A DNA stretch of 36,676 bases. Source: an uncultured bacterium. Its GTDB lineage: Bacteria; Cyanobacteriota; Vampirovibrionia; Gastranaerophilales; Gastranaerophilaceae. A program made the position numbers and the translations under genes. Below the pieces are notes generated by a model, which saw nothing but the letters and a program-made list of their open reading frames with translations, ran no database searches and was not told the DNA's origin. Each line of letters begins with the position of its first letter. Positions within the stretch are counted from its first letter, which is position 1. Shown here one piece after another: positions 3,935 through 36,416 of this stretch. The stretch spans positions 1 through 36,676 of the forward strand of contig USCK01000001.1 of NCBI GenBank assembly GCA_900553205.1, given 5' to 3'.

Positions 3935-4400
3935 AAGCTATAAAAAAGTATGTCATTCGATAGAAGAAACTAGAGAACTTGCTAAAAAATTTGCAAGTCT
4001 TACACAAGAAAAAGGTTGTTTTGTAAATCTTTTCGGTGAAATCGGTGCTGGTAAAACTGCTTTTGTAAGACTTGTTGCAGAAGCTCTTGATATAAAAGAA
4101 AAGGTTACAAGTCCTAGTTTTACTATACTTAATGAATATCATACAGGTAATATTCCGATTTATCATTTTGATTTGTACAGATTAGAAAATGAAGGTGTAA
4201 AAACAATTACTGATGAACTTAGAGAGTATTCTACAGGTAAACAACTTACTTTTGTAGAATGGGCAGAGTTTTCGCAAAATGAGATTCCGTTTGACCGTAT
4301 AGAAGTAAATGTTACTTATGATGATGAAGATAACAGATGTTTTGAATTTACTTCTATTGGTGAAGGTATGGACAAGATTATAGAAGGATTGGCAAAGTGA
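3924..4400 (+). CDS. tsaE: tRNA t6A37 biosynthesis ATPase TsaE
   Basis: Walker A 'GEIGAGKT' and the TsaE signature 'HFDLYRL'. The ATG at 3924 overlaps the GGDEF stop; the tracked TTG at 3918 is an alternative start. Confidence 0.85.
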   Translation: MKNKSYKKVCHSIEETRELAKKFASLTQEKGCFVNLFGEIGAGKTAFVRLVAEALDIKEKVTSPSFTILNEYHTGNIPIYHFDLYRLENEGVKTITDELREYSTGKQLTFVEWAEFSQNEIPFDRIEVNVTYDDEDNRCFEFTSIGEGMDKIIEGLAK

Positions 4401-5026
4401 AACTTTTAGCATTTGATACTTGTTTAGACAAAACTTATATCGTTTTAAGAGATGAAGATAATATCTTAACCTCAAAAATTCTTGAGTCTGATGAAAAGAA
4501 TTATCATTCAGCATATTTGATTTCGACTATTTCTAAAATATTAAAGGAAAATAATCTAACTCCTAAAGATATTGAAGGAATTGCAATCAATATCGGTCCG
4601 GGAAGTTTTACCGGAATAAGAGCTTGTACGACTGTAGCTCGAGTTATGGCCCAACAGTTGAATATAAAAGCTCTTGGTGTATCATCTTTAGAAATTTTAT
4701 CAAAAGCTTGTGATGATAAATATGTTGTAGCGCTTGATGCTCGTAAAAACAAAGCCTATTTATATGCCGGCAAACTTTTAGGTGCAGTTGAATTAGAAGA
4801 AGTAGATAAGCTGGTTAAAGGTAGAGATATAATAACTGATGATAGATTGTTTGAACGATTTAAAGAACTAGGAAATAATGTAATATCTTATCAGAAAGCT
4901 GATTTTGATTTAGGTAGAGTTCTATCAGATATCGCAATAACAAGAATCAAAGAACAAGAATGTGATTGGCATAAACTTTTACCTCTATATATTCAGCCAC
5001 CACCTGTTACTATTAAAAAGAAATAA
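4397..5026 (+). CDS. tsaB: tRNA t6A37 biosynthesis protein TsaB (YeaZ)
   Basis: 'MKLLAFDT...' N-terminus and 'GPGSFTGIRACTTVARVMAQ' motif. The GTG start overlaps the tsaE stop (GTGA). Confidence 0.85.
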   Translation: MKLLAFDTCLDKTYIVLRDEDNILTSKILESDEKNYHSAYLISTISKILKENNLTPKDIEGIAINIGPGSFTGIRACTTVARVMAQQLNIKALGVSSLEILSKACDDKYVVALDARKNKAYLYAGKLLGAVELEEVDKLVKGRDIITDDRLFERFKELGNNVISYQKADFDLGRVLSDIAITRIKEQECDWHKLLPLYIQPPPVTIKKK

Positions 5027-5037
5027 AAGGATTTGAT

Positions 5038-5913
5038 ATGAGTGCTATATGTAAAAACTGGACACAATGGCTTAAGGAAACAAGGTTTTCTGCTCTAACA
5101 GAGGAACTTAAAGCAGAAACTATTCAATGGCTGGATTCTGTCGGGAATGCAGTTATTAATATGGCACAAATCCAACCAAATGACACAGTTCTTGATATCG
5201 GTTGTGGTACAGGATTATTGAGCTTTAAGGCAATCGAAATTTTAGAAAAATTGAACGGTGAAGGAAAAGTTATTTTCTCTGACAAATTTCCTGATTGTTT
5301 AGAAACCTGTAAAAGTTTTTTGAATGAAAATCCTACAACAGTAAATTGTGAGTTTTTAAACGCATCTTGTGAAGATTTAAAACTCCCTGAAGGTAGTGTT
5401 GATAAGGCAGTTATGCGTTCAGTTTTGGTGCATATTGTTGATAAACAGTCTGCTATAAATGAGATTTTCAGAGTGTTAAAAACAGGTGGATATTTCTGTG
5501 CGTTTGAACCAATCATACGTTCTAATACAAGATATTCTGAATTGTTAGACCCTCAATACATAGAGAATTATCACGAGTTTAAAGATGCCGAGGCAAAGCT
5601 TATGTCTGACCCGAATGATTCTTTATGTAATTTTGATGATTTTACAATCAAAAATAATCTTGTTAAAGCTGGATTTTCTTCACCATCAACTATGATTCAT
5701 ACAATAGAATCAAAATATACTGTAACTAAGGAAATGGTAGTACCTTGGTTTGTATCGCCTCCTTCACCTGATAGACCTTCTATGAAGGAAAGATTTATGA
5801 CTTTCTTTGATGAAAAGAAAGTGGATAAATATATTTCTGATGTTCAGAATTATCTTACAGGTAGAGAAATCTCTTTGAAAACTAATTCTGTACTTATTTA
5901 TGCGACTAAATAG
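5038..5913 (+). CDS. Class I SAM-dependent methyltransferase
   Basis: Motif I 'VLDIGCGTGLLS', an acidic post-I loop, and 'VLKTGGYF' motif. Confidence 0.8.
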   Translation: MSAICKNWTQWLKETRFSALTEELKAETIQWLDSVGNAVINMAQIQPNDTVLDIGCGTGLLSFKAIEILEKLNGEGKVIFSDKFPDCLETCKSFLNENPTTVNCEFLNASCEDLKLPEGSVDKAVMRSVLVHIVDKQSAINEIFRVLKTGGYFCAFEPIIRSNTRYSELLDPQYIENYHEFKDAEAKLMSDPNDSLCNFDDFTIKNNLVKAGFSSPSTMIHTIESKYTVTKEMVVPWFVSPPSPDRPSMKERFMTFFDEKKVDKYISDVQNYLTGREISLKTNSVLIYATK

Positions 5914-6210: not shown

Positions 6211-6250
6211 TTCTTAATAACTTAGTCACTTAACTCTTAATCACTTCATC
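6211..6250. repeat. 8-nt-periodic array flanking repeat element (right arm)
   Basis: ttcttaataa cttagtca cttaact cttaatca cttcatc. The same array type occurs at 24506-24557. Confidence 0.55.
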
Positions 6251-9832: not shown

Positions 9833-10894
9833 ATGACAGCAACATTAGAAAAGTCTATGGACGAATTTGAAACATTGCTAGAAGAATCTTTTTCTAAATC
9901 TTATGCAGTAGCTGATATCGTAGAAGGTACTGTTATGAAAAAAGAATCTGATGGCTATTTAGTAAGCGTGAAAGGTGCTAAAATGGAAGCTTTCTTATCA
10001 AACAAAGAATTGTCTTCTGATGAACCTGAACTAGAAATCGGAGATGTAAAAGAATTTTACGTTCTTAAAGAAGAAAACGATGAAGATTCAATGTTATTAT
10101 CATTGAAAAGAATCGCATTTGCTCAAGCTTGGGCTCAACTTAACGATGCAAAAATTCAAGGTGATACAATCCTTGCAAAAGTTGTTTCTACAGTTAAGGG
10201 TGGTGTTCTTGTTGATGTTGCAGATTTGAAAGGCTTTATCCCTTCATCTCAATTAAGAACCGGTACTCCATTTGAAGGTTTAATCGACCAAAAAATCGAA
10301 GTTAAAGTTCTTGAAGCAGATCCTAAGAAAAACAAACTTATTCTTTCTCAACGTCAAGCAGTTGCAGAACAAAGAGATCAAGTTGTTGATAATGTATTAG
10401 CTTCTTTAGAAGAAGATTCAGTAGTTAAAGGTACTGTTGTAAGAATTACAGACTTTGGTGCTTTCGTTGATATCAACGGTATTGATGGTTTGTTACCAAT
10501 TTCTGAAATTTCTTGGCAAAGAATTAAACACCCTTCAGATGTTATCACTTTAGGTGACGAAATCGAAGTTAAAATTATCAAAATTGATACAGAATTAAAG
10601 AGAATTTCTTTAAGCTTAAAGAGAATGGGCGAAAATCCTTGGCAACAAATTGAAGGTCAATTTGAAGAAGGTCAAGTTGTTAAAGGTACTGTAAATAAAA
10701 TCACTACTTTCGGTGCTTTCATCAACATCTTCCCAGGAGTTGAAGCTTTATTACCAGTTTCTGAAATGAGCAATGAAAATGTTAATCCATTCAACATGTT
10801 CAAAGTAGGTGATGAAATCGAAGTTCTTATTAAGAGATTCACTCCAAAAGAACACAGAATCGCTTTGAGCGTAAAAGATATTCCTAACGCATAG
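9833..10894 (+). CDS. rpsA: 30S ribosomal protein S1 (four S1 domains)
   Basis: Four repeats of the S1 fold signature (e.g. 'VKGTVVRITDFGAFVDI', 'VKGTVNKITTFGAFINI'). A GGAGG lies 7 nt upstream. It sits directly after ispH, a common pairing. Confidence 0.9.
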   Translation: MTATLEKSMDEFETLLEESFSKSYAVADIVEGTVMKKESDGYLVSVKGAKMEAFLSNKELSSDEPELEIGDVKEFYVLKEENDEDSMLLSLKRIAFAQAWAQLNDAKIQGDTILAKVVSTVKGGVLVDVADLKGFIPSSQLRTGTPFEGLIDQKIEVKVLEADPKKNKLILSQRQAVAEQRDQVVDNVLASLEEDSVVKGTVVRITDFGAFVDINGIDGLLPISEISWQRIKHPSDVITLGDEIEVKIIKIDTELKRISLSLKRMGENPWQQIEGQFEEGQVVKGTVNKITTFGAFINIFPGVEALLPVSEMSNENVNPFNMFKVGDEIEVLIKRFTPKEHRIALSVKDIPNA

Positions 10895-10917
10895 TCAATA
10901 AGGAATTTTCAATAATT

Positions 10918-10953
10918 AAAGAGGGATTTTTGATTTTCAAAAATCCCTCTTTT
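10918..10953 (+). terminator. Intrinsic terminator after rpsA
   Basis: aaagagggattttt-gattttc-aaaaatccctcttt followed by T residues. Confidence 0.7.
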
Positions 10954-11024
10954 ACATTTATTCTATTTTGATGTAGTATAAGGTTAAGTTAACGGGAAGT
11001 AAATTATTAAGGAGAGATTTGAAT

Positions 11025-12395
11025 ATGGAACGTCAAAGACCTAAAGAACAAGATAAAATTCAACGTAGAAGTAATTTTGATGCAGTTGAAGAAAACTTTA
11101 CCAAAGAACAAGCTCTTGCTGAAGCTTCAAGATGTCTAAATTGTAAAAATCCAAGATGTGTAAAGGGTTGTCCTGTAAATATTCAAATTCCTCAATTTAT
11201 ACATGAATTAAAAGAAGGTAATCTTGATAAAGCCGGTGAAGTTATTCGTCAAACAAGTATGTTACCTTCAGTTTGTGGTCGTGTTTGTCCTCAAGAAAGA
11301 CAATGCGAAGGTCAATGTGTTTTGGGTATCAAGGGTGATGCTGTTGCTATCGGTGCTTTAGAAAGATATGTTGGTGACAACACAAGACCTGCAAAAGCAG
11401 AAATTAAACCTTCAGGCAAAAAAGTTGCCGTTATTGGTTCAGGTTGTGCAGGTATTACTGCTGCAGCTGATTTAAGAAAAGCAGGTCATGAAGTTGTTGT
11501 ATTTGAAGCACTTCACCAATTCGGTGGTGTGTTAAGATATGGTATTCCACCATTCAGACTTCCTCGTGTAGTATTGGATAGAGAAATTACATCACTAAAA
11601 GAAATGGGTGTTGAGTTTCACAAAAATGTTATTGTTGGTAAGTCAATCACTATTAAACAACTTGAAGAAGACGGTTTTGATGCAATATTCATTTGCTCAG
11701 GTGCCGGACTACCAAAAATGATGAATATTAAAGGTGAAAACTTGAACGGTGTATTCTCTGCAAACGAATTCTTAACTCGTGTAAACCTTATGCACGCAAA
11801 CGATGAACAAGCACCTACACCTCTAAGAGTTGGTAAAAAAGTTGCCGTAATAGGTGGTGGTAATGTTGCGATGGATGCAGCAAGAACTGCTGTTCGTGTC
11901 GGATTTGAAGAAGTTTATATCGTATATAGACGTACTGAAAAAGAACTTCCTGCTCGTCTTGAAGAAATCAGACACGCAAAAGAAGAAGGCGTTGTATTCA
12001 AATTCCTTCATGCACCTTCTGAAATCATAAATAACGAAGGTTATGTTGGTGGTATGAAGTTTGAAATAATGGAACTTGGAGAACCTGATGAATCCGGCAG
12101 ATGCAAACCTATCGGTACAGGCAAGTTTGAAACATTTGATGTTGATACAGTAATCGTTGCTCTTGGTACAGGCCCTAACCCTATTATTCAAAAGACATCT
12201 GCTGCTGATGGTATAGATTTTGAAACAGATAGACGTGGATATTTCACAGTTGATGAAGAAACAAGACAAACTTCAATCCCTACAATATATGCTGGTGGTG
12301 ATGTTGCTCCTGTTGGAACTTCAAACGCAATCAATGCTATGGGTGCAGGTAAAAAGGCGGCTAAAGCAATTAATGAATATTTGGCAACAAAATAA
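11025..12395 (+). CDS. gltA: NADPH-dependent glutamate synthase, small/homotetrameric type (GltD/GltA-like Fe-S flavoprotein)
   Basis: N-terminal Fe-S cluster motifs 'CLNCKNPRCVKGCPV' and 'CGRVCPQERQCEGQC'. There are two dinucleotide-binding folds, 'VAVIGSGCAGITAA' and 'VAVIGGGNVAMDAART'. AAGGAGAG lies 8 nt before the ATG at 11025. Confidence 0.8.
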   Translation: MERQRPKEQDKIQRRSNFDAVEENFTKEQALAEASRCLNCKNPRCVKGCPVNIQIPQFIHELKEGNLDKAGEVIRQTSMLPSVCGRVCPQERQCEGQCVLGIKGDAVAIGALERYVGDNTRPAKAEIKPSGKKVAVIGSGCAGITAAADLRKAGHEVVVFEALHQFGGVLRYGIPPFRLPRVVLDREITSLKEMGVEFHKNVIVGKSITIKQLEEDGFDAIFICSGAGLPKMMNIKGENLNGVFSANEFLTRVNLMHANDEQAPTPLRVGKKVAVIGGGNVAMDAARTAVRVGFEEVYIVYRRTEKELPARLEEIRHAKEEGVVFKFLHAPSEIINNEGYVGGMKFEIMELGEPDESGRCKPIGTGKFETFDVDTVIVALGTGPNPIIQKTSAADGIDFETDRRGYFTVDEETRQTSIPTIYAGGDVAPVGTSNAINAMGAGKKAAKAINEYLATK

Positions 12396-13344
12396 TTTCA
12401 AAAAATTAATAATAATAGCAATAATACAGGCAATAACTTTTATGCCTGTATTTGCTATTGATTTGGATTATACGGTTGATGATGCTATTCGGAAAAATTA
12501 TAAAGTTGAACAAGGACCAAATACAAATCCTGTAGTTACTCCTGTTCCAAAAACTGTTACACCAACATCAGTTCAACAACCTAAAAAGTCATCGTCTGAA
12601 TCAATGCCTAAATTACCTGCATTGCCTAAAACAATGACTCAGGCAAAACCTACACAAGCAAAAACTGTTCAAACAGTAAATAAAACAACAGTTAAACAAC
12701 CTATACAAAACATATCTCGTTCTGCGATTGCAAGAACAACTCAACAAACTTATACTTGTATTCCTTTGAGAAAAGGTACAGAGATAGAGATTTCTAATAT
12801 TAATGCTATATCTGACAAGCAAAAAGTCGGAACTAATATTGTTTTTGTTTCGGATAAACCTGTCAAAACTCCATATTATACAATTCCTCAGGGTACAAAG
12901 TTTGTCGGTAAAATTGTAGAATCTCATAACCCACAGATTATAGGCAATGGTGGGCTTGTATCAATAGAGGTTGTAACAATTATCCTTGCGAATCAGTATC
13001 AACACATTGATACCAGAATTACAAAGATAAATGATAAAAGAATATTTTTTGAAGATATAAAAGGCAAACATTCTTATTGGCGCAACACCATTAATAAAGG
13101 TAAATGGGGAAGAAATACATATAAGAAGATGAAGAAGCTTTCTTCTAACCTTGCTAAAGATAAAACAACAGTTATACTTTCACCGTTCACATTTGTATAT
13201 GGTGTCGCTTTAGGTGGTATAAGTACGGTATCATCACCAGTTGTATCAATATTCTGCAAGGGTGGTTCAGTAAATCTTCCTGTTGGTACAAAATTTGTTA
13301 TCAAATTTGAAAAAGATGCAAAGGTGAGAGTAAGTAACAGTTAA
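12373..13344 (+). CDS. Secreted hypothetical protein with P/T/Q-rich linker
   Basis: The tracked ORF starts inside gltA. The ATG at 12373 gives 'MNIWQQNNFKKLIIIAIIQAITFMPVFA', a signal-peptide-like N-terminus. A Pro/Thr/Gln/Lys-rich stretch and a beta-rich C-terminal domain follow. Confidence 0.5.
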   Translation: MNIWQQNNFKKLIIIAIIQAITFMPVFAIDLDYTVDDAIRKNYKVEQGPNTNPVVTPVPKTVTPTSVQQPKKSSSESMPKLPALPKTMTQAKPTQAKTVQTVNKTTVKQPIQNISRSAIARTTQQTYTCIPLRKGTEIEISNINAISDKQKVGTNIVFVSDKPVKTPYYTIPQGTKFVGKIVESHNPQIIGNGGLVSIEVVTIILANQYQHIDTRITKINDKRIFFEDIKGKHSYWRNTINKGKWGRNTYKKMKKLSSNLAKDKTTVILSPFTFVYGVALGGISTVSSPVVSIFCKGGSVNLPVGTKFVIKFEKDAKVRVSNS

Positions 13345-13360
13345 ACCCCCTTTTCATCTG

Positions 13361-13831
13361 TTATTTATGATATGTTTCGTTATTAGAAATTTTAAATGCT
13401 CGATATATTTGTTCAAGCAAAATAAGTCTTGTAAACTGATGAATAAATGTCATTTTTGATAGACTTAGTTTTAGGTTTGACATATTGCGAACTTTTTGTG
13501 ACAACCCACAAGATGAGCCAATTATAAAAACGATTTCTGAAACACCTGAGTTTGTTATTTGTTCAAGTTTTTTTGAAAAATCAACGGAATCAAATTGTTT
13601 TCCTTCGATTTCTAAGGTGATTATAAAACTTGAAGGCTTTATATGCGAGATGATTTTTTCGGCTTCGGCATCAAGTACTTTGTCTATCAGGTTTTCATCT
13701 TTTATCTCGATAGGTGTAAGTTCTATTATTTCTAACGGTGTGTAAGGGCGTAACCTCTTGAGGTATTCGTCTATACCGGCTTTTAGATATTTCTCTTTGA
13801 TTTTACCTAATGCGATAATTTTTATTTTCAT
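13361..13831 (-). CDS. rlmH: 23S rRNA (pseudouridine1915-N3)-methyltransferase RlmH
   Basis: 156 aa. 'MKIKIIALGKIKEKYLKAGIDEYLKRL' and the C-terminal 'IIGSSCGLS ... SLSKMTFIHQ' are the SPOUT RlmH pattern. Confidence 0.9.
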   Translation of the reverse strand: MKIKIIALGKIKEKYLKAGIDEYLKRLRPYTPLEIIELTPIEIKDENLIDKVLDAEAEKIISHIKPSSFIITLEIEGKQFDSVDFSKKLEQITNSGVSEIVFIIGSSCGLSQKVRNMSNLKLSLSKMTFIHQFTRLILLEQIYRAFKISNNETYHK

Positions 13832-13916
13832 ATTCTAATAATACCACCTAATTACTCAACAAGGGAATGAAATAATCAATTAAGAAGTTTATTTTTTATA
13901 TCGGGGGATTTTATAG

Positions 13917-14474
13917 ATGAAAAAACTTCTTTCAATTTTCGCAATTCTAATGCTGACTGCTCCTGTTTCATTCGGTGCAGGAGATTTTTTCAGATTTGAT
14001 AATCCGATGATGGGAAATAATCGTTGGTATAGGAATAGTATGGATAGAGAAATCAATTCTACTATTAATGAGATGAATAGGCAAAATTGGTCAAATCCTT
14101 ATGATATGTATAACAACCCTGTTTCTAAGATTTTCAGAAAGAATAATTATTCAAAAAATTCCGTAAAAGATTCTGATATAGAATATCTTTTATCCAAAAT
14201 GGAAAGAAACAGTTTCGGGCAAACATATAATACTTTGGGGATAGAAAATCGTCTTGACAGGCTTGAGGCTCAGATGTTCGGTGCTATTCAGTCAGGGGAT
14301 TACAAGAGCCGTTTGAACCGACTCAGACACGCTTATTCTGCAGAAGCAACAAGAGATTATAAAGCAAAAGGGAAAAAGGTAAATCGTTTTAAGGAGTTTT
14401 TCTCTACCGGGTATCCGACAAGTTTGCCTGCTGATGAAGATTATTATTCGTCGCTTAGAAATGGGGTTTATTAA
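13917..14474 (+). CDS. Secreted hypothetical protein
   Basis: Signal peptide 'MKKLLSIFAILMLTAPVSFGA', followed by an N/R/Y/M-rich polar protein with no recognised family. Confidence 0.5.
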   Translation: MKKLLSIFAILMLTAPVSFGAGDFFRFDNPMMGNNRWYRNSMDREINSTINEMNRQNWSNPYDMYNNPVSKIFRKNNYSKNSVKDSDIEYLLSKMERNSFGQTYNTLGIENRLDRLEAQMFGAIQSGDYKSRLNRLRHAYSAEATRDYKAKGKKVNRFKEFFSTGYPTSLPADEDYYSSLRNGVY

Positions 14475-14480
14475 TAAAAA

Positions 14481-14502
14481 GAGGAGAAATTTCTTTCTCC
14501 TC
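14481..14502 (-). terminator. Intrinsic terminator after trpB
   Basis: gaggagaaa-tttc-tttctcctc. On the minus strand the stem is followed by TTTTT. Confidence 0.55.
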
Positions 14503-14529
14503 AATTAATAATGTGTTGTGTTCTATTAT

Positions 14530-15726
14530 CTATAAAGAGTAATTTTCTAATACAAATTCTATGTCCTTATCTCCACGACCGGAAAGGTTTACAAGAATTT
14601 TGTCATTAGGATTTTGTTGTGCAAGTTTGAGCGCATAAGCCACTGCGTGAGAACTTTCCAGAGCAGGGATAATACCTTCTAATCTTGAAAGCTCATAGAA
14701 TGCAGAAATTGCTTCTTTATCATTAATAGTTACATAGCTTACACGCCCTGTATCGTGCAGATAACAATGCTTTGGACCAACTCCGGGGTAATCTAAGCCA
14801 CTTGCAACAGAATATGCGTTTGCAGGATTACCTTCGCTATCTTGTAATAACAGGCATTTGAACCCATGTATGATACCTTCTTTGCCATAAGTTATACTTG
14901 CTGCATTTTCTCCGACTTTTTCACCTTTTCCCATTGGTTCTACACCATAGATTTTTACATTTTTCTCGTTTAAAAATCCGTTAAAAATACCGATAGCGTT
15001 TGAGCCTCCACCAACACAAGCAACAACATGGTCAGGCATATCTCCTGTCATCTCTAGGATTTGTCTGTGTGCTTCTTTGCCGACTACGGTTTGGAAATGT
15101 TCAACAATCATTGGGAATGGATGTGGGCCAACAACAGAACCTATTGTGTATAATGCTGTTTCGTATTCTTTTGAGTATGCAATAAATGCTTCATCTACAG
15201 CTTCTTTTAGGGTCATTGTTCCACTTTTTACAGATACAACATTTGCCCCTAATATTTTCATTCTCTCAACATTAGGTTTTGCTTTTTGGATATCTGTTTC
15301 GCCCATATAGATATCACATTCAAGCCCCAACAAGGCTGCTGCTGTTGCAGTAGCTACACCATGTTGCCCTGCACCTGTTTCTGCAATAATTTTTGTTTTT
15401 CCCATTCTTTTTGCAAGCAGGGCTTCACCAAGGCAGTGATTAATTTTGTGTGCGCCTGTATGATTCAGGTCTTCTCGTTTTAGATAAATCTCTGCACCGT
15501 ATTTTTCTGATAGGTTTTTTGCGAAATATACAGGGCTTGGGCGTCCAACATAATATTTTAATAAATCGTTTAGTTCTTGGTTGAAGATAACATCATCTTT
15601 AAGCTTCATAAAACATTCTGTTATTTTTTTAAATTCGGCTTTTAGTCCTTCAGGCAAATATTGTCCACCGTAATTGCCGAAAAATCCTTCTTGAGTAGGT
15701 AAAATGTTGTTAATTGTTGTTTCCAT
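14530..15726 (-). CDS. trpB: Tryptophan synthase beta chain
   Basis: '[11 protein letters not shown]', the PLP-lysine block 'HTGAHKINH', 'GGGSNAIG' and 'SGRGDKD'. No trpA is adjacent on either side. Confidence 0.95.
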
Positions 15727-15997
15727 AATTAGAATCCTCCATAAAATGCTTTGTTATAACCGAGTGCTTATCCTTGAGAATTTTAGAACCTCTGGTAACT
15801 TTGCAAAGACTTACATTTAGTTCTTTAACAATGTCCCGTTGGGTTCTGCCTTCTGCTAACATAGACAGGATTCGCCATCGTTTTGACAAAGCCGACATTT
15901 CGGATTCGGAAAGCATTTCGTTTAGAAACGCTTGAACTTCTTCTTGCGAATTTAGACTAATAATAAAATTGGTAATTTCTTCAATGTTACTGTTCAT
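15710..15997 (-). CDS. TrpR-like regulator, YerC/YecD family
   Basis: '[57 protein letters not shown]' matches the TrpR/YerC helix-turn-helix layout. I prefer the ATG at 15997; the tracked start at 16042 adds a hydrophobic 15-aa extension. The 3' end overlaps trpB by 17 nt. Confidence 0.75.
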
Positions 15998-16020
15998 AGA
16001 AACAAAAATATTATAAACAA

Positions 16021-16042
16021 ATGTTACTGTCAATAGTAACAT
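16021..16042. promoter_or_regulatory. Candidate operator palindrome upstream of the trpR-like/trpB pair
   Basis: Perfect inverted repeat ATGTTACT-gtcaat-AGTAACAT. On the minus strand a TTGACA hexamer (16033-16028) lies in its centre. Confidence 0.35.
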
Positions 16043-16180
16043 AGTTAAATTGTTAAAAAATTTTTACAAGAATCTTTTAAAACACCATGAGCACTTGCAT
16101 GGAAAAATTTTAGAGGTAAAATAAAAGAAGTCGAAAATAAATTGTCCAAGTTTGGAATCTTGGATAGAAAGAAGGTAATC

Positions 16181-16381
16181 ATGAAAAAAGGAATACATCC
16201 TGATTATAAAAAAACTGTTATCAAATGTGTTTGTGGTAACGAAATAGAAACAGCATCTGTTGCAGAAAACATCACAGTTGAAATTTGCAACAACTGCCAC
16301 CCTTTCTATACAGGTCAACAAAAAATTCTTGACTCAGAAGGTAGAGTTGAAAGATTCAAAAAACGTTACGGACAAAAATAG
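16181..16381 (+). CDS. rpmE: 50S ribosomal protein L31 (Zn-ribbon type)
   Basis: 'MKKGIHPDY...' with 'CVCG' and '[10 protein letters not shown]'. The tracked TTG at 16142 is an upstream extension. Confidence 0.95.
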
Positions 16382-16410
16382 TAACAGTTTAATGTTAAGA
16401 TTTTACAGAA

Positions 16411-16441
16411 AAGAGATTGGTTTTTATCAGTCTCTTTTTTA
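16411..16441 (+). terminator. Intrinsic terminator after rpmE
   Basis: aagagattg-loop-cagtctctt followed by TTTTT. Confidence 0.6.
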
Positions 16442-16554
16442 TTATATAAAGTTTTATAATAGTTCTTTAAGTATAAATAACAATTTTACATTCACCCTCT
16501 CTCTATGTTAGAATTAATCAAGGAGTATAATTATTTATAAAAAAGGGAGAGGGT

Positions 16555-17271
16555 ATGACTCATAATAATAAACCGGAAGTCAGACTTATTGCAAAGCCTG
16601 ATAATCTTTTGAGAACAATATACACAGCTTGTAGAACTTGTTATAGCGCAGATTCTCCGTTAAATATTTTTGACTGTGATGCTGATGACGAAAAGATGTT
16701 AAAACTTATATCTCGAGTAGTTTCTTCCGGACATTATTCTACAATAGAACATATACAAGTTAGTTTTGCTATCTCAAATGTATCAAGAGCATGCACTCAC
16801 CAACTTGTAAGACATCGTCACATGTCTTTTTCTCAAAAATCTCAAAGATATGTGAAAGAAAAAGGACAATTTGATTATATTATTCCACCGACTATTGAAC
16901 GTAATCCTGAATTGAAACAAAAATTTGAAGAGTTTATGCAAGATATCTCAAATAAATATCTTGAGTTTACAGAAGCAGGGATTCCTGCAGAAGATGCGCG
17001 TTTTGTTCTTCCAAACGCAACAGCAAGTTCAATGGTTGCATCACTAAACCTTAGAGAGCTTATTCACTTGGCTAATTTGAGATTATGCACAAGAGCCCAA
17101 TACGAAATCCGTTTATTGGTAAAAGGTATGTGTGATGAACTTGTTAAGCAAGAGCCTTGGCTAAAAGATTATCTTGTTCCAAAATGCGAGCGTTTAGGTT
17201 TTTGTGACGAGGACAAATGTTGTGGCAGAATGCCTAAAAAAGAGGAAGCTATAAATGGGGGTGCCAAATAA
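16555..17271 (+). CDS. thyX: FAD-dependent thymidylate synthase ThyX
   Basis: ThyX signature 'RHRHMSFSQKSQRY' (RHRxxSxxxxSxR). Confidence 0.95.
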   Translation: MTHNNKPEVRLIAKPDNLLRTIYTACRTCYSADSPLNIFDCDADDEKMLKLISRVVSSGHYSTIEHIQVSFAISNVSRACTHQLVRHRHMSFSQKSQRYVKEKGQFDYIIPPTIERNPELKQKFEEFMQDISNKYLEFTEAGIPAEDARFVLPNATASSMVASLNLRELIHLANLRLCTRAQYEIRLLVKGMCDELVKQEPWLKDYLVPKCERLGFCDEDKCCGRMPKKEEAINGGAK

Positions 17272-20425: not shown

Positions 20426-21646
20426 ATGCAAGATTTATTAAATGTTTACTTGAATAATGATTTGATTGGTTATTTAAACAAAGATGATAATGGTGGCTTT
20501 TCTTTTCAATACGATAAAGATGCAGAACAACCGTTATCAATTAGTTTGCCTTTAAGAGAAGATTCGTTTACCAATAAAGAATGCAGAGGGTTTTTTAACG
20601 GTTTATTGCCTGAAAGTGAACAAGTTAGAGTTAATATCGGAAAAAGATACGGTATTAACCCAAAAAATGATTTTTCGATACTTAATGCAATAGGTTATGA
20701 CTGTGCAGGGGCAGTGTCATTTTTTAAAGATATGCCGAAAAATTTAAAAGAATTTTATAAACTTGAAGGGCAAATATTAACAGATGATGAACTTGAAAAG
20801 TATATCAAGGAATTGCCAAGAAAGCCTTTAGCTTTAGGTTCTGACAAAAGATTATCTCTCGCAGGTGCACAGGATAAAACAGCAGTTATTTTAATTGATA
20901 ATAAAATTGCATTACCTGATAGTAATGTTCCTTCAACTCATATATTAAAACCTGCTATAGACGGTTTTTTAGAATCAATCGAAAATGAATACATTTGTAT
21001 GAAGGTTGCAGAAAAACTTGGTATTCAAGTTCCTGTCGTGCATATTGATAGTGTAAATGATACAAAATACTTTTTGATAGAAAGATATGATAGAGTAATT
21101 GCAGATGAAACAGTAAAAAGAGTTCATCAAGAAGACTTCTGCCAAGCCTCAAATATCCCGAGTGCTTATAAGTATCAAGCAGAAGGTGGAGTTGATTATA
21201 AGATGTGTATTGATATCCTCAAAAAGACTACAACTCCTGCAAGTGCAATTAAACGATTTATTGATTTGATGATATTTAATTATCTTATTGGTAATAATGA
21301 CGCACATGGCAAAAACTTTTCGTTATTGCATTATGCTAACGATAATATTGTTTTTGCACCTGCTTATGATATTTTATGCACCAGTGTATATCCTGAATTG
21401 TCAAACAAAATGGCAATGAAAATCGGTGGATATTATGAAGCCTCAAAGATTTATCCAAGACATTTTGAAAGAATGTCAAAAGAATTGGAAATAAGTAATA
21501 CACAAATTAAAAAAGTACTCAAAAAACAATGTGAAATTTTACCGGATATTGTAAAAGAAGTTTCAAATAGTTTTGATAATAATATAGAAATTTTAAAAGT
21601 TGTAACACAAAATTGTCAAAGAAATAAGAAAAATTTTGAGTTTTAA
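20426..21646 (+). CDS. hipA: HipA-family serine/threonine kinase toxin
   Basis: N-terminal coupling domain 'LNVYLNNDLIGYL...FSFQYD', P-loop-like 'LSLAGAQDKTAV' and catalytic 'GNNDAHGKNFSLL'. Confidence 0.9.
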   Translation: MQDLLNVYLNNDLIGYLNKDDNGGFSFQYDKDAEQPLSISLPLREDSFTNKECRGFFNGLLPESEQVRVNIGKRYGINPKNDFSILNAIGYDCAGAVSFFKDMPKNLKEFYKLEGQILTDDELEKYIKELPRKPLALGSDKRLSLAGAQDKTAVILIDNKIALPDSNVPSTHILKPAIDGFLESIENEYICMKVAEKLGIQVPVVHIDSVNDTKYFLIERYDRVIADETVKRVHQEDFCQASNIPSAYKYQAEGGVDYKMCIDILKKTTTPASAIKRFIDLMIFNYLIGNNDAHGKNFSLLHYANDNIVFAPAYDILCTSVYPELSNKMAMKIGGYYEASKIYPRHFERMSKELEISNTQIKKVLKKQCEILPDIVKEVSNSFDNNIEILKVVTQNCQRNKKNFEF

Positions 21647-23987: not shown

Positions 23988-24080
23988 AATAAAAACATAG
24001 GGTGGTAGTTGTCCAAGCTACCAAATGACTCTAAGAAAAGCTAAATGGTTCTTATCTGTTTGGGTAAGAGCCATTTTTTG
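23988..24080 (+). ncRNA. Candidate antisense small RNA (putative type I antitoxin)
   Basis: It starts about 7 nt after the TATAAT. A 5' hairpin tggtag-ttgtccaag-ctacca is present. The RNA ends in a 13-bp stem (24044-24056 / 24063-24075) plus a T-run (24076-24079). The last ~29 nt are antisense to the 3' end of the small ORF at 24052-24132. Confidence 0.35.
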
Positions 24081-24132
24081 TTATGTAAAGAATTAAAAAT
24101 ACCATTATTAAAGTAAGATTTATATTTTCCAT
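24052..24132 (-). CDS. 26-aa hydrophobic peptide (putative type I toxin)
   Basis: Below the ORF-track length cutoff. The minus strand reads AGGAGG-ctgtt-ATG and encodes MENINLTLIMVFLILYITKNGSYPNR, a single TM-like core with a polar/basic tail. Confidence 0.35.
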   Translation of the reverse strand: MENINLTLIMVFLILYITKNGSYPNR

Positions 24133-24308
24133 AACAGCCTCCTTTCATAGAAATGAACAACCGAAAAGCTATATAAATTGTGTCGTCATTCTTCTGAAAA
24201 GAGTCATTTTTACCCTATGTTGCACTGTCAAGGTGCTTTATAAATATAGCATAGTTAGTATTAAATGCGAATATATTTAAATATATTTAACAATTTGTGA
24301 ATATTTTT

Positions 24309-24350
24309 TATTAAGTTACTAAGAATTAAGTGATTAAGTTATTAAGATAT
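24309..24350. repeat. 8-nt-periodic array (inverted partner of 24506-24557)
   Basis: ttattaag ttactaag aattaagt gattaagt tattaaga. It is the reverse complement of the CTTAATCA/CTTAGTAA-type units. Confidence 0.55.
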
Positions 24351-24419
24351 CAAACTGATAGATTCTGAATAACTTGAAAATTATATATTCACTAGTGTTC
24401 ATATAAATTTTTTAAGTTT

Positions 24420-24478
24420 TCAGAATGACGAGTAAATTTACACACAAAAATTATTCGGGACAGTAGTGAAGGCGCAGT
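24420..24478. repeat. Core fragment of the dispersed element
   Basis: It contains tcagaatgac (24420-24429) and aggcgcagt (24470-24478). Both are also present in the copy at 6030-6200. Confidence 0.5.
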
Positions 24479-24505
24479 TGATAAATCTCTTACGATAGTT
24501 ACTTT

Positions 24506-24557
24506 CTTATTAACCTATTAACTTAGTAACTTAATCACTTAGTCACATATTCACTTC
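24506..24557. repeat. 8-nt-periodic array
   Basis: cttattaa cctattaa cttagtaa cttaatca cttagtca catattca cttc. Confidence 0.6.
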
Positions 24558-24784
24558 TATATATAAAATTCTTTCTCATCTATTTAGATGAGATTTTTCG
24601 ATGTTTGCTATTGTTTTTGAAATTCTTGCCGTATGACGACATGAGAAGTCATGTAAATATTGACTTTCGGATAGTTGACTTTTTTGAAAACAACATTAAA
24701 GACAACATGTAACGAAAAGAATATGAGGTAATATGACAAAAAATCAGTACATACAACAGAACAACCAAATAGGAGGGCATGCTT

Positions 24785-27073
24785 ATGGGTATGGCAGCAT
24801 CACAGGCTAGGTATCTAGCACTGACCGCTCGTAAAAGTAATGTTGAGTACGAAGGCCAACAAATTAACCAATCCAGAACGGCATTGGCAAACCAGACGGC
24901 TAACCTATTCAACCAAATGATGGGAATGAGCGTCCCAACACCGCCTTCTGTTGCAGATTACACCACTGTACAATATTCATTCAGTGATGGTTCTAACACA
25001 GAAGCAATTTCAAACTACTATCAATTGGGTAATTCAGACTCTGATTACAACTATGTTGTAACAACTTACCACAACGAAAAAGTTTATCAGGGTTCTCGTA
25101 AGAAAATGAACGACCCACAGGTTCAAGCGACCTACACAAATCGCTACACTTACAATCCGTCTGATGCAGATAACAATATCAGTCGTACTGTAACAAAAGC
25201 TGAACTTAATGCTGATGGTTCTTACTTTATTCAAGAAACTAACGGTACAACTAAAACTTACCGTCCGGTTACTGAAAAAGAAGAAGATCAAGTAAAAGCT
25301 ATTAACCACGGTTTGGGTCAAAACGAAAAGAATCCTACTGTAAATCTTGCTAGTGATGATTTACGTAAGAACTTTAACATCGTTACAAACCCTACATCTG
25401 ATCAGTTGAAAGAATTAGGTGAGCTATTTGGTTATAGATCATCTAACTTCAACAAATCTACTGCAACTCAAAATGTTACTAATGCTAATATTGGTACTTA
25501 TACAGCTTGTACAGAGGCAGATGCAGACCAAATCAGAACAATTTTTGGTTCTGATGCAACACCTACATCAGTAAAAAGTGAGACAAAAAATTGGAATAAA
25601 ACTGATGCAACTGGTTATAACGCTTGTACAGATACAGATCTTGCAGCTATTCAACAGTTATACGGTGCAGATGTTACTGATGCTACAGCTTATATGAAAA
25701 AAGCTGATGGCACATATATGACAAAAGAAGCGTATGATGGTTTAGATACAACAACTAAGTCTGATGTCGAAGTAAGATCTCTTGTTCAAAATTACTACAA
25801 GAGCGGTGATTACTACATTTCAGCAGCTGATAAAGCTACTGTTGAAGGTGGTGGTACTGCTACTGCACAAACAGTAACTCGCAAAACAATGGACATTGAT
25901 GCAGGTAACCAAAGTTCATTTATTGACATTGATACAAACGATGCTGATATGGTTGCAAGAGCAATGGCAGCAATCGGTTGTACTCAAGAAGAACTTGGCA
26001 ACTATATGTTGTTCAACACAACAGACGTAAACTTCCAAGGTTTTGTAAAACGAGAAGATGTTGAAAACATGAACAAGGATAGTCAATTCTATACAGTTGA
26101 CAACTTCTCTAATCAATACTATTGGAATGGTACAGGTTATGTAACAGCTTCTGACATGGATAACAAAGTTGAAGGTGCGACATTATATGTTCCTGAAAAC
26201 AAGAAAACAGGTATTGGTATTGTTCAAGGCGGCGACCAAACTTTCTACACAGATGGTAATTCATTTGTTACAAAAGCTGATTTAGACGCTGCGTTAGCTT
26301 CTTACAATCGTTACTTAGCAACAGGTAAAAAAGAAGCTAATACAATTAATGAGATACTTGTATCTAATGATCCTGCGTTCTCTAACTATACTCAGGTTGG
26401 TAACTGCCAATTGTCAGAAATATTTGCAGCTGATTTAGAACGTGATGAAGCAATGAATACCGAAATCATGCAGATTATCAAGGATATGAAGGGTGAAAAC
26501 GGTGATAAAGTTGCAGCAGAAAACTTAGAAGCTTGTTTTGATGTTGATGCAAACGGTGACTATGTATATAAAGGTGGTATCTACAAGTTCCAAATGGGTG
26601 GTACAACATACTACACTACTAAAAAAGACTTGGATACTTCATTAGGTACATCAATCGTTGATAACAACATCGATGTTCAACAAGAAAAACTTAGATACTA
26701 CAACGGTGTATATGTAGATACAAAAGTTGAAGATACTAAGAAAGCATTGTTGGAAACAGATGGCAACGGTAGATTCAAATCTATCAAGTTGGAAGATGAT
26801 AATGTTCAATACACATTGAATGTTGAGTCAAAAACCGACGAAGATGCATACAATGATGCAATGAACAGATACTACTATGAAAAAGAAGTATATGAAAAGA
26901 ATGTATCTGATATCAATGCAAAAACTGAAATTATTCAGGCACAAGACAGAACCCTTGAACTGCGTTTGGAACAGTTGAATACCGAACAATCTGCTCTACA
27001 AAACGAAATGGAAGCAGTTAAGAAGGTAGTTGACAAACACGTAGAACTTGGATTCAAGACATTCGGTGGCTAA
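24785..27073 (+). CDS. Large hypothetical protein with conserved helical termini and a repeat-rich T/N/D/Y-rich central domain
   Basis: AGGAGG (24771-24776) lies 8 nt before the ATG at 24785; the tracked ATG at 24779 is too close. The N-terminus is 'MGMAASQARYLALTARKSNVEYEGQQINQ' and the C-terminal coiled coil ends 'VELGFKTFGG'. No signal peptide and no flagellin motifs are present. Confidence 0.85.
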   Translation: MGMAASQARYLALTARKSNVEYEGQQINQSRTALANQTANLFNQMMGMSVPTPPSVADYTTVQYSFSDGSNTEAISNYYQLGNSDSDYNYVVTTYHNEKVYQGSRKKMNDPQVQATYTNRYTYNPSDADNNISRTVTKAELNADGSYFIQETNGTTKTYRPVTEKEEDQVKAINHGLGQNEKNPTVNLASDDLRKNFNIVTNPTSDQLKELGELFGYRSSNFNKSTATQNVTNANIGTYTACTEADADQIRTIFGSDATPTSVKSETKNWNKTDATGYNACTDTDLAAIQQLYGADVTDATAYMKKADGTYMTKEAYDGLDTTTKSDVEVRSLVQNYYKSGDYYISAADKATVEGGGTATAQTVTRKTMDIDAGNQSSFIDIDTNDADMVARAMAAIGCTQEELGNYMLFNTTDVNFQGFVKREDVENMNKDSQFYTVDNFSNQYYWNGTGYVTASDMDNKVEGATLYVPENKKTGIGIVQGGDQTFYTDGNSFVTKADLDAALASYNRYLATGKKEANTINEILVSNDPAFSNYTQVGNCQLSEIFAADLERDEAMNTEIMQIIKDMKGENGDKVAAENLEACFDVDANGDYVYKGGIYKFQMGGTTYYTTKKDLDTSLGTSIVDNNIDVQQEKLRYYNGVYVDTKVEDTKKALLETDGNGRFKSIKLEDDNVQYTLNVESKTDEDAYNDAMNRYYYEKEVYEKNVSDINAKTEIIQAQDRTLELRLEQLNTEQSALQNEMEAVKKVVDKHVELGFKTFGG

Positions 27074-27115
27074 TAGTTAGAAGGTTAGAGGTTAAGGTAG
27101 ATAGAAGGTTAGTAA
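27074..27115. repeat. 8-nt-periodic array immediately after the stop codon
   Basis: tagttaga aggttaga ggttaagg tagataga aggttagt aa. Confidence 0.45.
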
Positions 27116-27288
27116 AAATAAATATATTTATATACTTACCTTCTCCTCCTTACTCTCAAGAAATACCCAAAAATGCGGCTTCAATGTCGGTCACGAATTC
27201 AAAAGCTGCTTAGTCAGACCGGTTCAAAATCCAAAGAACAAGGCAGAGCAGTAGTTGACTAAATTAATAAAAAAGCTTGAGGAAAACA

Positions 27289-35579: not shown

Positions 35580-36416
35580 ATGTATGATTCGTTCACAACG
35601 GCGATAAACACTCAGAGAGCAACTACCCACTGGATGGAAACATTAACCGATAACATGATGAACCAATATACTCCGGGGTTTAGAGAGAGTAAAATAACCT
35701 TCAGTACATTCCTAGGTGGTGCTGTTGTTGATAATCCTGTTAAAAACCAAGGGCAAGGTAAATCAACTCCGGGGACTTCAAACGAAAATGTGTTCTTTGA
35801 AGGTAGTGGGTTCTTTGTTACCAGAAACAGCGAAGGTAAAACTGCTTACACTCGTCTTGGAGAGTTTACATTTGATTCCGAAGGTGTATATAGAGCCAAA
35901 AACGGTGATGCTGTTCAGGGCTATATCCTAAATGATAACGGCGAAATTATGGCAGGCACTAAATCAATTAGTGCTGATTTATACGAAGAAACTGCTCTGA
36001 AAGGTGGGGCGCTTAGTATCCCTACAACAAATATCAAAATGTGGATTGATCCTAACAACGGTAAATTCATGGGCAAATATGACGAATATGAAATAAAAGA
36101 AGACGGCACAATATACGGTAAAGCTGACGGTGGCAAACGCTCTGTGCCTCTATACAAAATTGCAACTGCTAACTTCCATAACCCTAGTGGGTTGTATGAG
36201 GTTAAAGAAGGCGTGTTTGTTGAAACAGAGGATTCAGGGAAACCTGTTATCGGTCGTGGTTCTATCCGTTCAGGGTTGTTAGAACAAGCAAATACCGACT
36301 TCAAAGGTAATATGACAAACTATCAACAAGCAAAAGTCCAAATGGAACTTGTTAATGCGTTGATTAAGTCTAACAAAGAACTATTAGAAGAAGCGATGAG
36401 ATTAGTAAGTTCATAA
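35580..36416 (+). CDS. flgE: Flagellar hook/rod protein, FlgE/FlgF/FlgG family
   Basis: N-terminal rod motif '...MNQYTPGFRE', 'GSGFFVTRNSEGKTAYTRLGEFTFDSEGVYRAKNGDAVQGY', 'ANFHNPSGLYEVKEGVFVETEDSG' and C-terminal 'LLEQANTDF'. AAGGAGAG RBS is present. The position after fliK suggests the hook protein, but 278 aa is short for FlgE. Confidence 0.75.
   Translation: MYDSFTTAINTQRATTHWMETLTDNMMNQYTPGFRESKITFSTFLGGAVVDNPVKNQGQGKSTPGTSNENVFFEGSGFFVTRNSEGKTAYTRLGEFTFDSEGVYRAKNGDAVQGYILNDNGEIMAGTKSISADLYEETALKGGALSIPTTNIKMWIDPNNGKFMGKYDEYEIKEDGTIYGKADGGKRSVPLYKIATANFHNPSGLYEVKEGVFVETEDSGKPVIGRGSIRSGLLEQANTDFKGNMTNYQQAKVQMELVNALIKSNKELLEEAMRLVSS

Follow-up and report, generated by a model that had tools for sequence, protein, structure and literature searches.

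An undescribed protein family of gut Gastranaerophilales with conserved helical ends and a hypervariable centre, a candidate variable surface subunit

Introduction

Gastranaerophilales are a widespread, largely uncultured gut lineage of non-photosynthetic cyanobacteria and, to our knowledge, almost nothing is known of their cell surface. The lineage is reported to be enriched in non-industrialised human populations (2026 preprint). We analysed a stretch of 36,676 nucleotides (nt) from one uncultured member (assembly GCA_900553205.1, contig USCK01000001.1), called the window throughout, with a G+C content of 34% and the isolate HGM07924 as nearest relative. Its forward strand carries at 24785-27073 the coding sequence of a 762-residue protein, labelled T here, which an earlier reading of the letters alone had described as two helical ends around a repeated, fast-evolving and surface-exposed middle. 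What kind of protein is T, and in what structure might it serve? We find that T belongs to a large, unannotated family with nearly invariant ends and a hypervariable insert, and, with strong support, that its ends are homologous to the two arms of a small helical protein encoded nearby. Loci and family proteins are cited below by L and P numbers.

Results

A family with constant ends and a variable centre

The open reading frame (ORF) finder called the gene at 24779-27073 (+), as 764 residues. Because all homologues start at MGMAASQ and an AGGAGG ribosome-binding site is spaced 8 nt ahead of the ATG at 24785, we place the start at that ATG, and the frame of 762 residues that the sequence-only reading had proposed is the right one. 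AlphaFold2, run on a 30-sequence alignment (mean predicted local distance difference test score (pLDDT) 80, predicted template modelling score (pTM) 0.39), models T with one helix at each end (residues 2-47 and 686-760) and several beta-rich domains between them, and so agrees with the helical ends read earlier from the sequence. The gene divides as follows, with dN/dS denoting the ratio of non-synonymous to synonymous substitution rates.

24785..27073, +: T coding sequence, 762 residues (homologue starts, ribosome-binding site; whole-gene dN/dS of 0.11 against L007)
24771..24776, +: ribosome-binding site AGGAGG, 8 nt ahead of the ATG at 24785 (sequence)
24788..24925, +: N-terminal helix, residues 2-47, nearly invariant in the family (AlphaFold2; 85% mean identity; hhalign to the N end of g113, described below)
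24926..25324, +: conserved N-side beta-rich domain, residues 48-180, best conserved over 48-125 (alignment; AlphaFold2 strands 60-161)
25325..26224, +: hypervariable insert, residues 181-480 (low identity and gaps; module copy number varies between orthologues; dN/dS 0.33)
26225..26839, +: conserved C-side beta-rich domain, residues 481-685, with invariant C584/F585 and a TDE.AYNDAMN motif (alignment, AlphaFold2)
26840..27064, +: C-terminal helix of 75 residues (686-760) that bears a heptad stripe; last residues of T ...GFKTFGG (AlphaFold2; periodicity; 80% identity)

Regional identities and gaps were taken from an alignment of T with 29 relatives, orthologues and paralogues together.

Residues 1-47: 85% mean identity, 0% of residues opposite gaps
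Residues 48-125: 66% mean identity, 1% opposite gaps
Residues 181-300: 17% mean identity, 65% opposite gaps
Residues 301-420: 22% mean identity, 57% opposite gaps
Residues 421-480: 26% mean identity, 39% opposite gaps
Residues 561-685: 64% mean identity, 2% opposite gaps
Residues 686-762: 80% mean identity, 0% opposite gaps

In orthologues and paralogues alike the termini are far better conserved than the centre. The proposed layout of conserved ends and variable centre therefore stands, at 85% and 80% identity against 17-26%, but the conserved part is larger than had been thought and takes in about 125-180 residues on the N side and about 280 on the C side. The orthologue P0003 matches T at 95-100% identity in residues 1-180, at 96% in 561-685 and at 100% in the C-terminal helix (686-762), with 41-47% identity in the centre, a mosaic pattern which suggests that the central segment has been exchanged. 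In comparison with the closest strain, the N part has a dN/dS of 0.07, the centre 0.33 and the C part 0.04. Judged by these rates, the gene is functional and under purifying selection, its ends tightly constrained and its centre held about five-fold more weakly. A fast-evolving middle is thereby supported in part: dN/dS is raised in the centre but stays below one, and beta-rich domains, conserved and non-repetitive, account for some 340 residues of the supposed middle (48-180 and 481-685).

The family is large, with 2,386 representatives at 50% identity (E ≤ 1e-3; 209-1074 residues) and, among the scored candidates, 1,425 clusters at 90% identity, whose named sources are all listed as 'hypothetical protein' of Candidatus Gastranaerophilales or Cyanobacteria bacterium RUI128. 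In the GTDB species genomes at least 521 stretches match the family; among the best 80, most are titled Gastranaerophilales, Melainabacteria, Cyanobacteriota or Vampirovibrio, and the rest carry uninformative titles or the automatic labels Acinetobacter, Muribaculaceae and Brachyspira, which we take to be mislabels. So far, by this sampling, the family appears only in gut Gastranaerophilales. Across 226 full-length members the length runs from 209 to 861 residues and the ends are the same throughout, with the N-terminal helix consensus MG(M/L)(A/S)AS.AR(Y/F)L.L.ARK.N.E(Y/F)(E/Q)GQQ(I/V)N and the C-terminal helix consensus ...LDTEQ.A(L/I)..E(M/L).AV.KV(I/V)...(V/I)E..FKTF both seen as invariant alignment columns. 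Many polar residues are invariant along both helices in the alignment, which suggests extensive contacts between subunits or with partners. The minimal member, P0249 (209 residues; pLDDT 94.5, pTM 0.68), is modelled as a helix (3-47), a seven-strand beta domain (60-132) and a second helix (134-208).

Searches for known relatives were uniformly negative. T gave no hit in Pfam or NCBIfam at E ≤ 1 and at most coiled-coil noise in PHROGs and PADLOC; its single sequence found no relative in the PDB, and the family profile found no PDB chain at E ≤ 10. The NCBIfam model TIGR02977 (PspA/IM30) scored 19.1 bits on the C-terminal helix only, against a cut-off of 243, and no Vipp1 or PspA chain was matched in the PDB. 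Pfam, NCBIfam and the PDB revealed no SLH, RTX, Ig-like, autotransporter or other adhesin domain in T. Foldseek returned no convincing match for the full model (PDB and viral library) or for the short P0249 model (PDB). In the AlphaFold2 model a polar helix starts at residue 2, and T shows no Sec or type I secretion signal. Neither sequence nor structure placed T in a known enzyme or adhesin family, and a literature search found no description of its family. The family is undescribed, and its sequence and fold are far from anything characterised. In kind, we infer, T is a familiar sort of protein, comparable with flagellins, pilins and S-layer proteins: a structural protein, abundant and variable, whose conserved ends serve assembly.

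Composition, heptads and repeats

T is hydrophilic and acidic (isoelectric point 4.5). Thr, Asn, Asp and Tyr make up 36.5% of residues 48-685, compared with 20.6% (range 15-28%) in the 22 other ORFs of the window, so the enrichment that the sequence-only reading had reported is genuine. An acidic, hydrophilic composition rich in these four residues is also found in flagellin outer domains and S-layer proteins.

The C-terminal helix carries a hydrophobic or aromatic residue every seven positions over ten heptads (Y689, Y696, Y703, I710, I717, L724, L731, L738, V745 and H752; 3.5-residue periodicity, p = 0.03), and the N-terminal helix has a single stripe with the same seven-residue period (L13, V20, I27, L34 and L41; p = 0.02). 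Of the heptad-like coiled coil proposed for the C-terminus, the stripe is real; a canonical coiled coil is not shown, since the 'a' position alone is consistently hydrophobic.

The peptides quoted earlier as repeats lie where they had been placed, at residues 237, 276, 337, 445, 487 and 607, and two kinds of repeat emerge. A strand-helix module spaced at 39 residues occurs twice in T (residues 237-261 and 276-301; nt 25493-25567 and 25610-25687) and three times, at 39-41-residue spacing, in the orthologue P0006; its consensus is CT(D/E)xD..(I/L)..(L/I)(F/Y)G, and AlphaFold2 models each copy as a 10-residue strand and an 11-residue helix. A shorter hairpin-helix motif, YY..G.Y(V/I)T..D(L/M), has about four copies in T, two in the insert (181-480) and two, at residues 487 and 607, in the C-side conserved domain; it is present in 104 of 227 family members and in 1 of 227 shuffled sequences. 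T aligned with itself by BLAST gave no off-diagonal match, its best off-diagonal local score (58) was reached in 38 of 100 shuffles, which leaves single-sequence repeats within chance, and DNA tandem repeats inside the gene are trivial. At the family level, then, the repeats of T are real, and they do not exceed chance in T alone. The roughly 600 residues of repeated sequence first described shrink to about 150, the module and the motif being the only elements that recur.

A recurrent cassette and a paralogue made of the ends

T is the first of five genes in the order T-g285-(g72)-g89-g113. Of 87 related loci, about half contain this cassette, in flanking DNA that is otherwise unrelated; the others hold stand-alone paralogues amid housekeeping genes. 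In the window the genes downstream of T are the following.

27290..28132, +: g285, rich in Gly and Ser, with a glycine-zipper-like hydrophobic stretch and a helix at the C-terminus (homologues)
28306..28527, +: g72, small conserved ORF, 73 residues here, present in most but not all cassettes (locus comparison)
28623..28892, +: g89, small ORF for a basic, helical protein, conserved as part of the cassette (locus comparison; a called gene in L002)
28901..29242, +: g113, 113-residue, insert-less T paralogue, a predicted helical hairpin (sequences of 38 loci; hhalign)
29269..29293, +: terminator-like hairpin and T-run at the end of the cassette (terminator scan)

The last gene bears most directly on the architecture of T. 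g113 starts 1.8 kb downstream of T, ranges from 108 to 115 residues across loci and is predicted to form two helical arms around a short turn of the type D-P-(D/E)-(N/S)-P (DLDPDSD here, DPENP or DPNDP in relatives). Profile comparison by hhalign aligned its N half with the N end of T (probability 96%, E 2.9e-9) and its C half with the C end (probability 94%, E 9.4e-8); crossed controls gave about 1%, and the whole profiles 91.5%. Homology between the end helices of T and the two arms of g113 is strongly supported by these alignments. Because the arms are joined by so short a loop, they are expected to pair in antiparallel fashion and form a hairpin; T would therefore be the same hairpin with about 640 beta-rich residues inserted at its tip.

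T and g113 share an invariant Met-Gly start; small residues come next, and position 6 is Ser or Ala (MGMAASQ at 24785-24805 in T, MGLIAAS at 28901-28921 in g113). This start fits the eukaryotic N-myristoylation consensus, perhaps by coincidence or simply through a structural requirement.

For g285 we found 1,008 homologues, all of 274-287 residues and none named, with 72-96% identity among the best 120; no other gene of the cassette is as well conserved. Compared with L007 and L088, the window copy has lost 14 bp after nt 27758, a frameshift that splits it into the ORFs 27277-27798 and 27728-28132; in this strain it is either a pseudogene or the product of an assembly error. None of g285, g72, g89 and g113 matched a family in Pfam, NCBIfam, PHROGs or PADLOC beyond coiled-coil noise. 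The PADLOC scan of the cassette proteins gave such noise for g113 alone (E about 0.007-0.009) and no defence-system match, and the g113 profile met only coiled-coil noise in the PDB, with no needle or EspA chain.

Genomes carry several T paralogues, and several metagenome-assembled genomes supply at least two loci. In L008, L009, L011 and L075, two tandem family genes stand ahead of a single g285-g113 cassette, an arrangement that would allow recombination between copies. In L092, two ORFs (546 and 435 residues, no Pfam match; 1907-5052) lie 5-8 kb upstream of a family gene; they are of family-typical length only and may be further paralogues.

Signals for expression

DNA conservation with the orthologous loci L007, L088 and L010-L012 starts at about 24574; the stretch 24000-24570 is not shared. 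Three elements flank the coding sequence.

24574..24593, +: terminator-like hairpin at the 5' border of the conserved leader region (terminator scan)
24660..24702, +: promoter-like element, TTGACTT twice (24660-24666 and 24675-24681), a 16-nt spacer and a -10-like TAAAGA (24697-24702) (sequence)
27088..27157, +: imperfect stem-loop past the T stop codon, without a T-run (minimum free energy -23 kcal/mol, z = -2.2)

Among 85 non-identical family genes, TTGACTT is found ahead of 75, where 1.8 would be expected; (C)ATTAAA or TATAAA sits 16 nt past its TTGACT hexamer, and 55 of the 85 have ATAGGAG at about -16. A strong promoter thus appears common to the family, its role being deduced from the consensus alone. 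With elongation factor G (EF-G) and S1 as reference, T reaches a codon adaptation of 0.60, which places it third among 26 non-reference ORFs, and g72, g89 and g113 rank low at 0.34-0.36. Promoter, ribosome-binding site and codon usage together suggest, if only indirectly, one abundant product, T, with minor partners.

The stem-loop past T was considered as a conserved attenuator and rejected, being inconsistently present in other loci and of doubtful significance. The 980-nt intergenic region upstream of T also holds two inverted repeats, I1 (23-nt arms 24327-24349 and 24519-24541, 91% complementary, 169 nt apart) and I6 (14-nt arms 24310-24323 and 24522-24535, 100% complementary, 198 nt apart). 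An invertible promoter was rejected here: L007, the closest relative, lacks the 570-nt stretch that holds them (24000-24570), the arm is one copy of a dispersed 38-nt repeat that recurs at 6212-6249 of the window and in L012 and L062, and the conserved promoter is not enclosed. The repeat looks like a small mobile or repetitive extragenic palindromic (REP)-like element. Rfam and tRNA scans of the window gave no matches.

Flagellar genes and promoter motifs around family loci

Seven to eight kilobases downstream of T, at its 3' end, the window holds a cluster of flagellar genes (34318-36416), two of which are as follows.

34899..35561: FliK-like ORF (PF02120, E 3.7e-5)
35580..36416: FlgE/F/G-subfamily protein, 278 residues (TIGR03506, 117 bits)

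An ORF at 34318-35016 overlaps the FliK-like ORF in another frame, and fliK may therefore be frameshifted too. Elsewhere, fliE-fliF-fliG-fliH-flhA lie near family genes in L004-L006, L020, L077 and L085, and a family gene in L040 sits between flagellar rod and hook genes. Canonical flagellin genes stand divergent from a T paralogue at about 370 nt in L071 (330-737, -) and about 4.5 kb from a family gene in L080 (467-1438, +). Altogether flagellar genes flank 11 of 93 loci (about 8 independent); since chance would give about 7-10% by a rough, not computed, estimate, we rejected neighbourhood enrichment as evidence.

A sigma-28-like motif, TAAAG-N15/16-GYCGTTT, precedes 18 of 85 family genes against 1.5 expected, in a subgroup of stand-alone paralogues (most of about 433 residues, some to about 600), where it is placed just upstream of the common TTGACTT promoter.

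Loci with the sigma-28-like motif, about 83-128 nt upstream of the family gene: L037, L039, L040, L042, L043, L045, L050, L054-L057, L059, L063, L064, L071, L072, L074

The motif is absent upstream of T and from the upstream regions of the flagellins, and could not be linked to known flagellar genes. A canonical sigma-28 promoter (TAAA-N15-GCCGATAA) was sought upstream of family genes and is absent there. Canonical TAAAGTTT-N11-GCCGATT sites stand ahead of unrelated small ORFs in L045 and L059; those ORFs belong to no family.

Other loci

Between the NFACT and EF-G genes of the window lies a HipA-type toxin kinase gene with both HipA domains (20426-21646). In L077, 5 kb upstream of the cassette, a type IV pilin-like ORF (1004-1273) has the N-terminal motif KGFTLAEVLV, and these genomes therefore encode type IV pili too.

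Discussion

We tentatively favour the possibility that T is the major variable subunit of a self-assembling, probably surface-exposed structure specific to Gastranaerophilales. The near-invariant hairpin and the adjoining conserved beta domain would hold the contacts for subunit packing, and would probably also be recognised for export without a signal peptide. The distal insert (residues 181-480) would project from the tip, exposed to solvent or environment, and would diversify as segments are inserted or deleted, as modules duplicate and as strains and paralogues exchange sequence. g113 would act as a minor or adaptor subunit, and g285, g72 and g89 as factors for assembly, anchoring or chaperoning. 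The assembly role given to the ends is strengthened by g113, since this 113-residue paralogue consists of the two end helices alone.

Several points weigh against this proposal. Secretion, surface location and polymerization of T are themselves inferred; T has no signal peptide, lipobox or known anchoring domain, and the cassette contains no secretion-system gene. In Foldseek its models showed no significant fold match to known filament proteins, and the closest topologies belong to two cytoplasmic proteins, prefoldin and V-ATPase subunit D. Only the 'a' position of the heptads is consistently hydrophobic and 'd' is mostly polar, which is atypical of a stable coiled coil. The dN/dS of the centre is raised yet below one, which indicates relaxed or mosaic evolution rather than established positive selection. 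The frameshift in g285 means either that the cassette is inessential in this strain or that the assembly is faulty.

The nearest topologies invite the thought that the T family is an intracellular coiled-coil scaffold or chaperone-like protein of prefoldin- or V-ATPase-D-like topology, with an insert that binds variable cytoplasmic or invading partners such as phages. T lacks an export signal of known kind, its helices are Q/N/E-rich like many cytoplasmic coiled coils, the topologies that Foldseek places closest to the short model are those of prefoldin alpha (1fxk_C, probability 0.87, target TM score 0.62) and V/A-ATPase subunit D, and g113 drew sub-threshold NCBIfam prefoldin matches (15-17 bits against cut-offs of 54-73). 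However, all these structural matches are non-significant (1fxk_C at E 0.45 with a root-mean-square deviation (RMSD) of 24 Å; V-ATPase D at E 0.2-1; every RMSD above 20 Å), no known defence system was matched in PADLOC, and the multi-copy paralogy, mosaic hypervariable centres and four-fold length variation are rare in cytoplasmic housekeeping scaffolds. The acidic, T/N/D/Y-rich and Cys-poor composition is, moreover, more typical of exported structural proteins, and we consider an intracellular scaffold unlikely. Nor does a secreted soluble polymorphic effector or toxin-delivery protein fit well, with g285 as its membrane-active partner and the small ORFs as chaperones or immunity factors. The hydrophobic Gly-rich segment between the helices of g285, the small helical ORFs alongside and the variable region of T would suit it. 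But polymorphic toxins vary in a C-terminal enzymatic domain and travel with cognate immunity genes, whereas T conserves both termini and varies internally, in a part that was non-enzymatic in all searches; g285 is nearly invariant, unlike toxin-immunity pairs; and about half of the family genes stand alone, without a cassette. An effector therefore strikes us as highly improbable.

A narrower version of our surface-subunit proposal casts T and g113 as flagellar type III export substrates that form an appendage associated with the flagellum or derived from it, for instance a filament, a sheath, a cap or a fibre like a needle. According to published analyses, about 75% of Gastranaerophilales retain just part of the flagellar gene set (flhB, fliI and flgG), for which a role in secretion has been postulated (bioRxiv 10.64898/2026.04.24.720558; PMC4040986). 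T has no signal peptide and an invariant extreme N-terminus, its terminal helices and variable insert parallel the flagellar axial proteins, 6 of the top 50 Foldseek matches of the full model are flagellar filament or junction proteins (best 9au6_A, E 8e-4), and the flagellar neighbours and sigma-28-like motifs described above point the same way. Against this, the TM score with the full model is 0.08, flagellin falls to rank 22 (E 0.45) with the short, confident model, and T has neither a Pfam flagellar domain (PF00669, PF00700, PF00460, PF06429) nor a PDB sequence match. By hhalign, the ends of T and g113 matched the FlgB, FlgC, FlgF/G, FlgE-like (L040 and window), FliE (L004) and flagellin proteins of the lineage at below 1.5% throughout: each rod, hook or FliE comparison gave a probability below 1%, and Gastranaerophilales flagellin at most 1.3%. 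Canonical flagellins are present in the lineage, so that no replacement is needed; the neighbourhood is close to chance, and the motif is missing from T itself. We regard such an appendage as distinctly unlikely, and export of T through the flagellar apparatus as attractive but unlikely. Bolder still is the conjecture, to which we give a small chance, that T and g113 are subunits of a new extracellular appendage built by the flagellar-type export apparatus, which most of the lineage retains although about three quarters of it lacks a complete flagellum; if true, this would be a third type-III-dependent surface organelle besides the flagellum and the injectisome. In such an organelle g285 would be a distal part or act on membranes, and g72 and g89 would chaperone the subunits. 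Another reading, that T is a true flagellin, hook-associated protein or FliD which has simply diverged far, draws on its overall architecture, the weak Foldseek matches and the flagellin neighbour in L071. This last idea is largely refuted and seems to us extremely improbable, because every sequence and profile test was negative, canonical flagellins coexist in the lineage, and beta structure directly follows the single 46-residue N-terminal helix in the AlphaFold2 model, in place of the roughly 140-residue helical ND0/ND1 region of flagellin.

The family merits attention on several grounds. It is large, diverse, multi-copy and unannotated, and its promoter and codon usage suggest high expression. 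If T is the main variable surface structure, as we tentatively propose, it would be the principal interface of these bacteria with host immunity and phages and a natural marker for strain typing. It is also a concrete candidate for the export substrate of the puzzling, partial flagellar gene sets in this lineage. Even if T is intracellular, a five-gene cassette without known domains is a well-defined structural and functional target.

Comparison with known systems

Antiparallel pairing of long end helices with a small beta domain at the tip, as predicted for the minimal family member, is also the layout of prefoldin alpha/beta, V/A-ATPase subunit D and FliJ-type stalks. Prefoldin and V/A-ATPase D differ from T in being single-copy, conserved and cytoplasmic and in lacking a variable insert, and their matches to it are non-significant. 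g113 recalls the needle and filament proteins of type III secretion systems (SctF/PrgI/MxiH; EspA), being likewise a small predicted helix-turn-helix hairpin with a proline-containing turn, and the set of g113, a larger hairpin protein, a hydrophobic protein and two small helical ORFs is reminiscent of what we take to be operons for needle, tip, translocator and chaperone, a likeness to be treated only as a lead. The likeness is architectural only. g113 matches no needle or filament chain in the PDB by sequence and has 108-115 residues against about 80, and injectisome genes (SctC, SctJ, SctV, SctN and others) were found neither in the window nor in the annotated 6-10-kb flanks of the loci.

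S-layer and phase-variable proteins, for example the SapA homologues of Campylobacter fetus, share with T the signals of abundance, an acidic isoelectric point, multi-copy paralogues with conserved and variable parts and mosaicism between strains. T differs in having no SLH domain, RTX repeat or type I signal and in conserving both ends, not one. Its loci have no adjacent dedicated transporter, with the exception of a MacAB-TolC-like neighbour in L086. In that single instance (10343-17265), a distant stand-alone paralogue, P0207, stands directly upstream of genes for a TolC-like protein, a membrane-fusion protein, two DUF3137 proteins and a MacB-type ABC protein.

The closest parallel is with flagellin and the other axial proteins (FliC, FlgE, FlgK, FlgL and FliD). 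They too have conserved end helices with heptad character, a hypervariable, T/N/D-rich central insert whose length varies between strains, several paralogues per genome, a strong promoter and no signal peptide. T nevertheless shares no detectable sequence or profile similarity with them, even with the axial proteins of its own lineage. It has a single 46-residue N-terminal helix where flagellin has ND0 and ND1, about 340 residues of beta domains within its conserved part and, in the models, one N-terminal and one C-terminal helix rather than a four-helix D0/D1 core. Judged by these comparisons, T is akin to flagellin in evolutionary logic and not a member of the flagellin or axial-protein family. 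It would thus add an independent case of a conserved helical core with a variable exposed insert, the layout made famous by flagellins.

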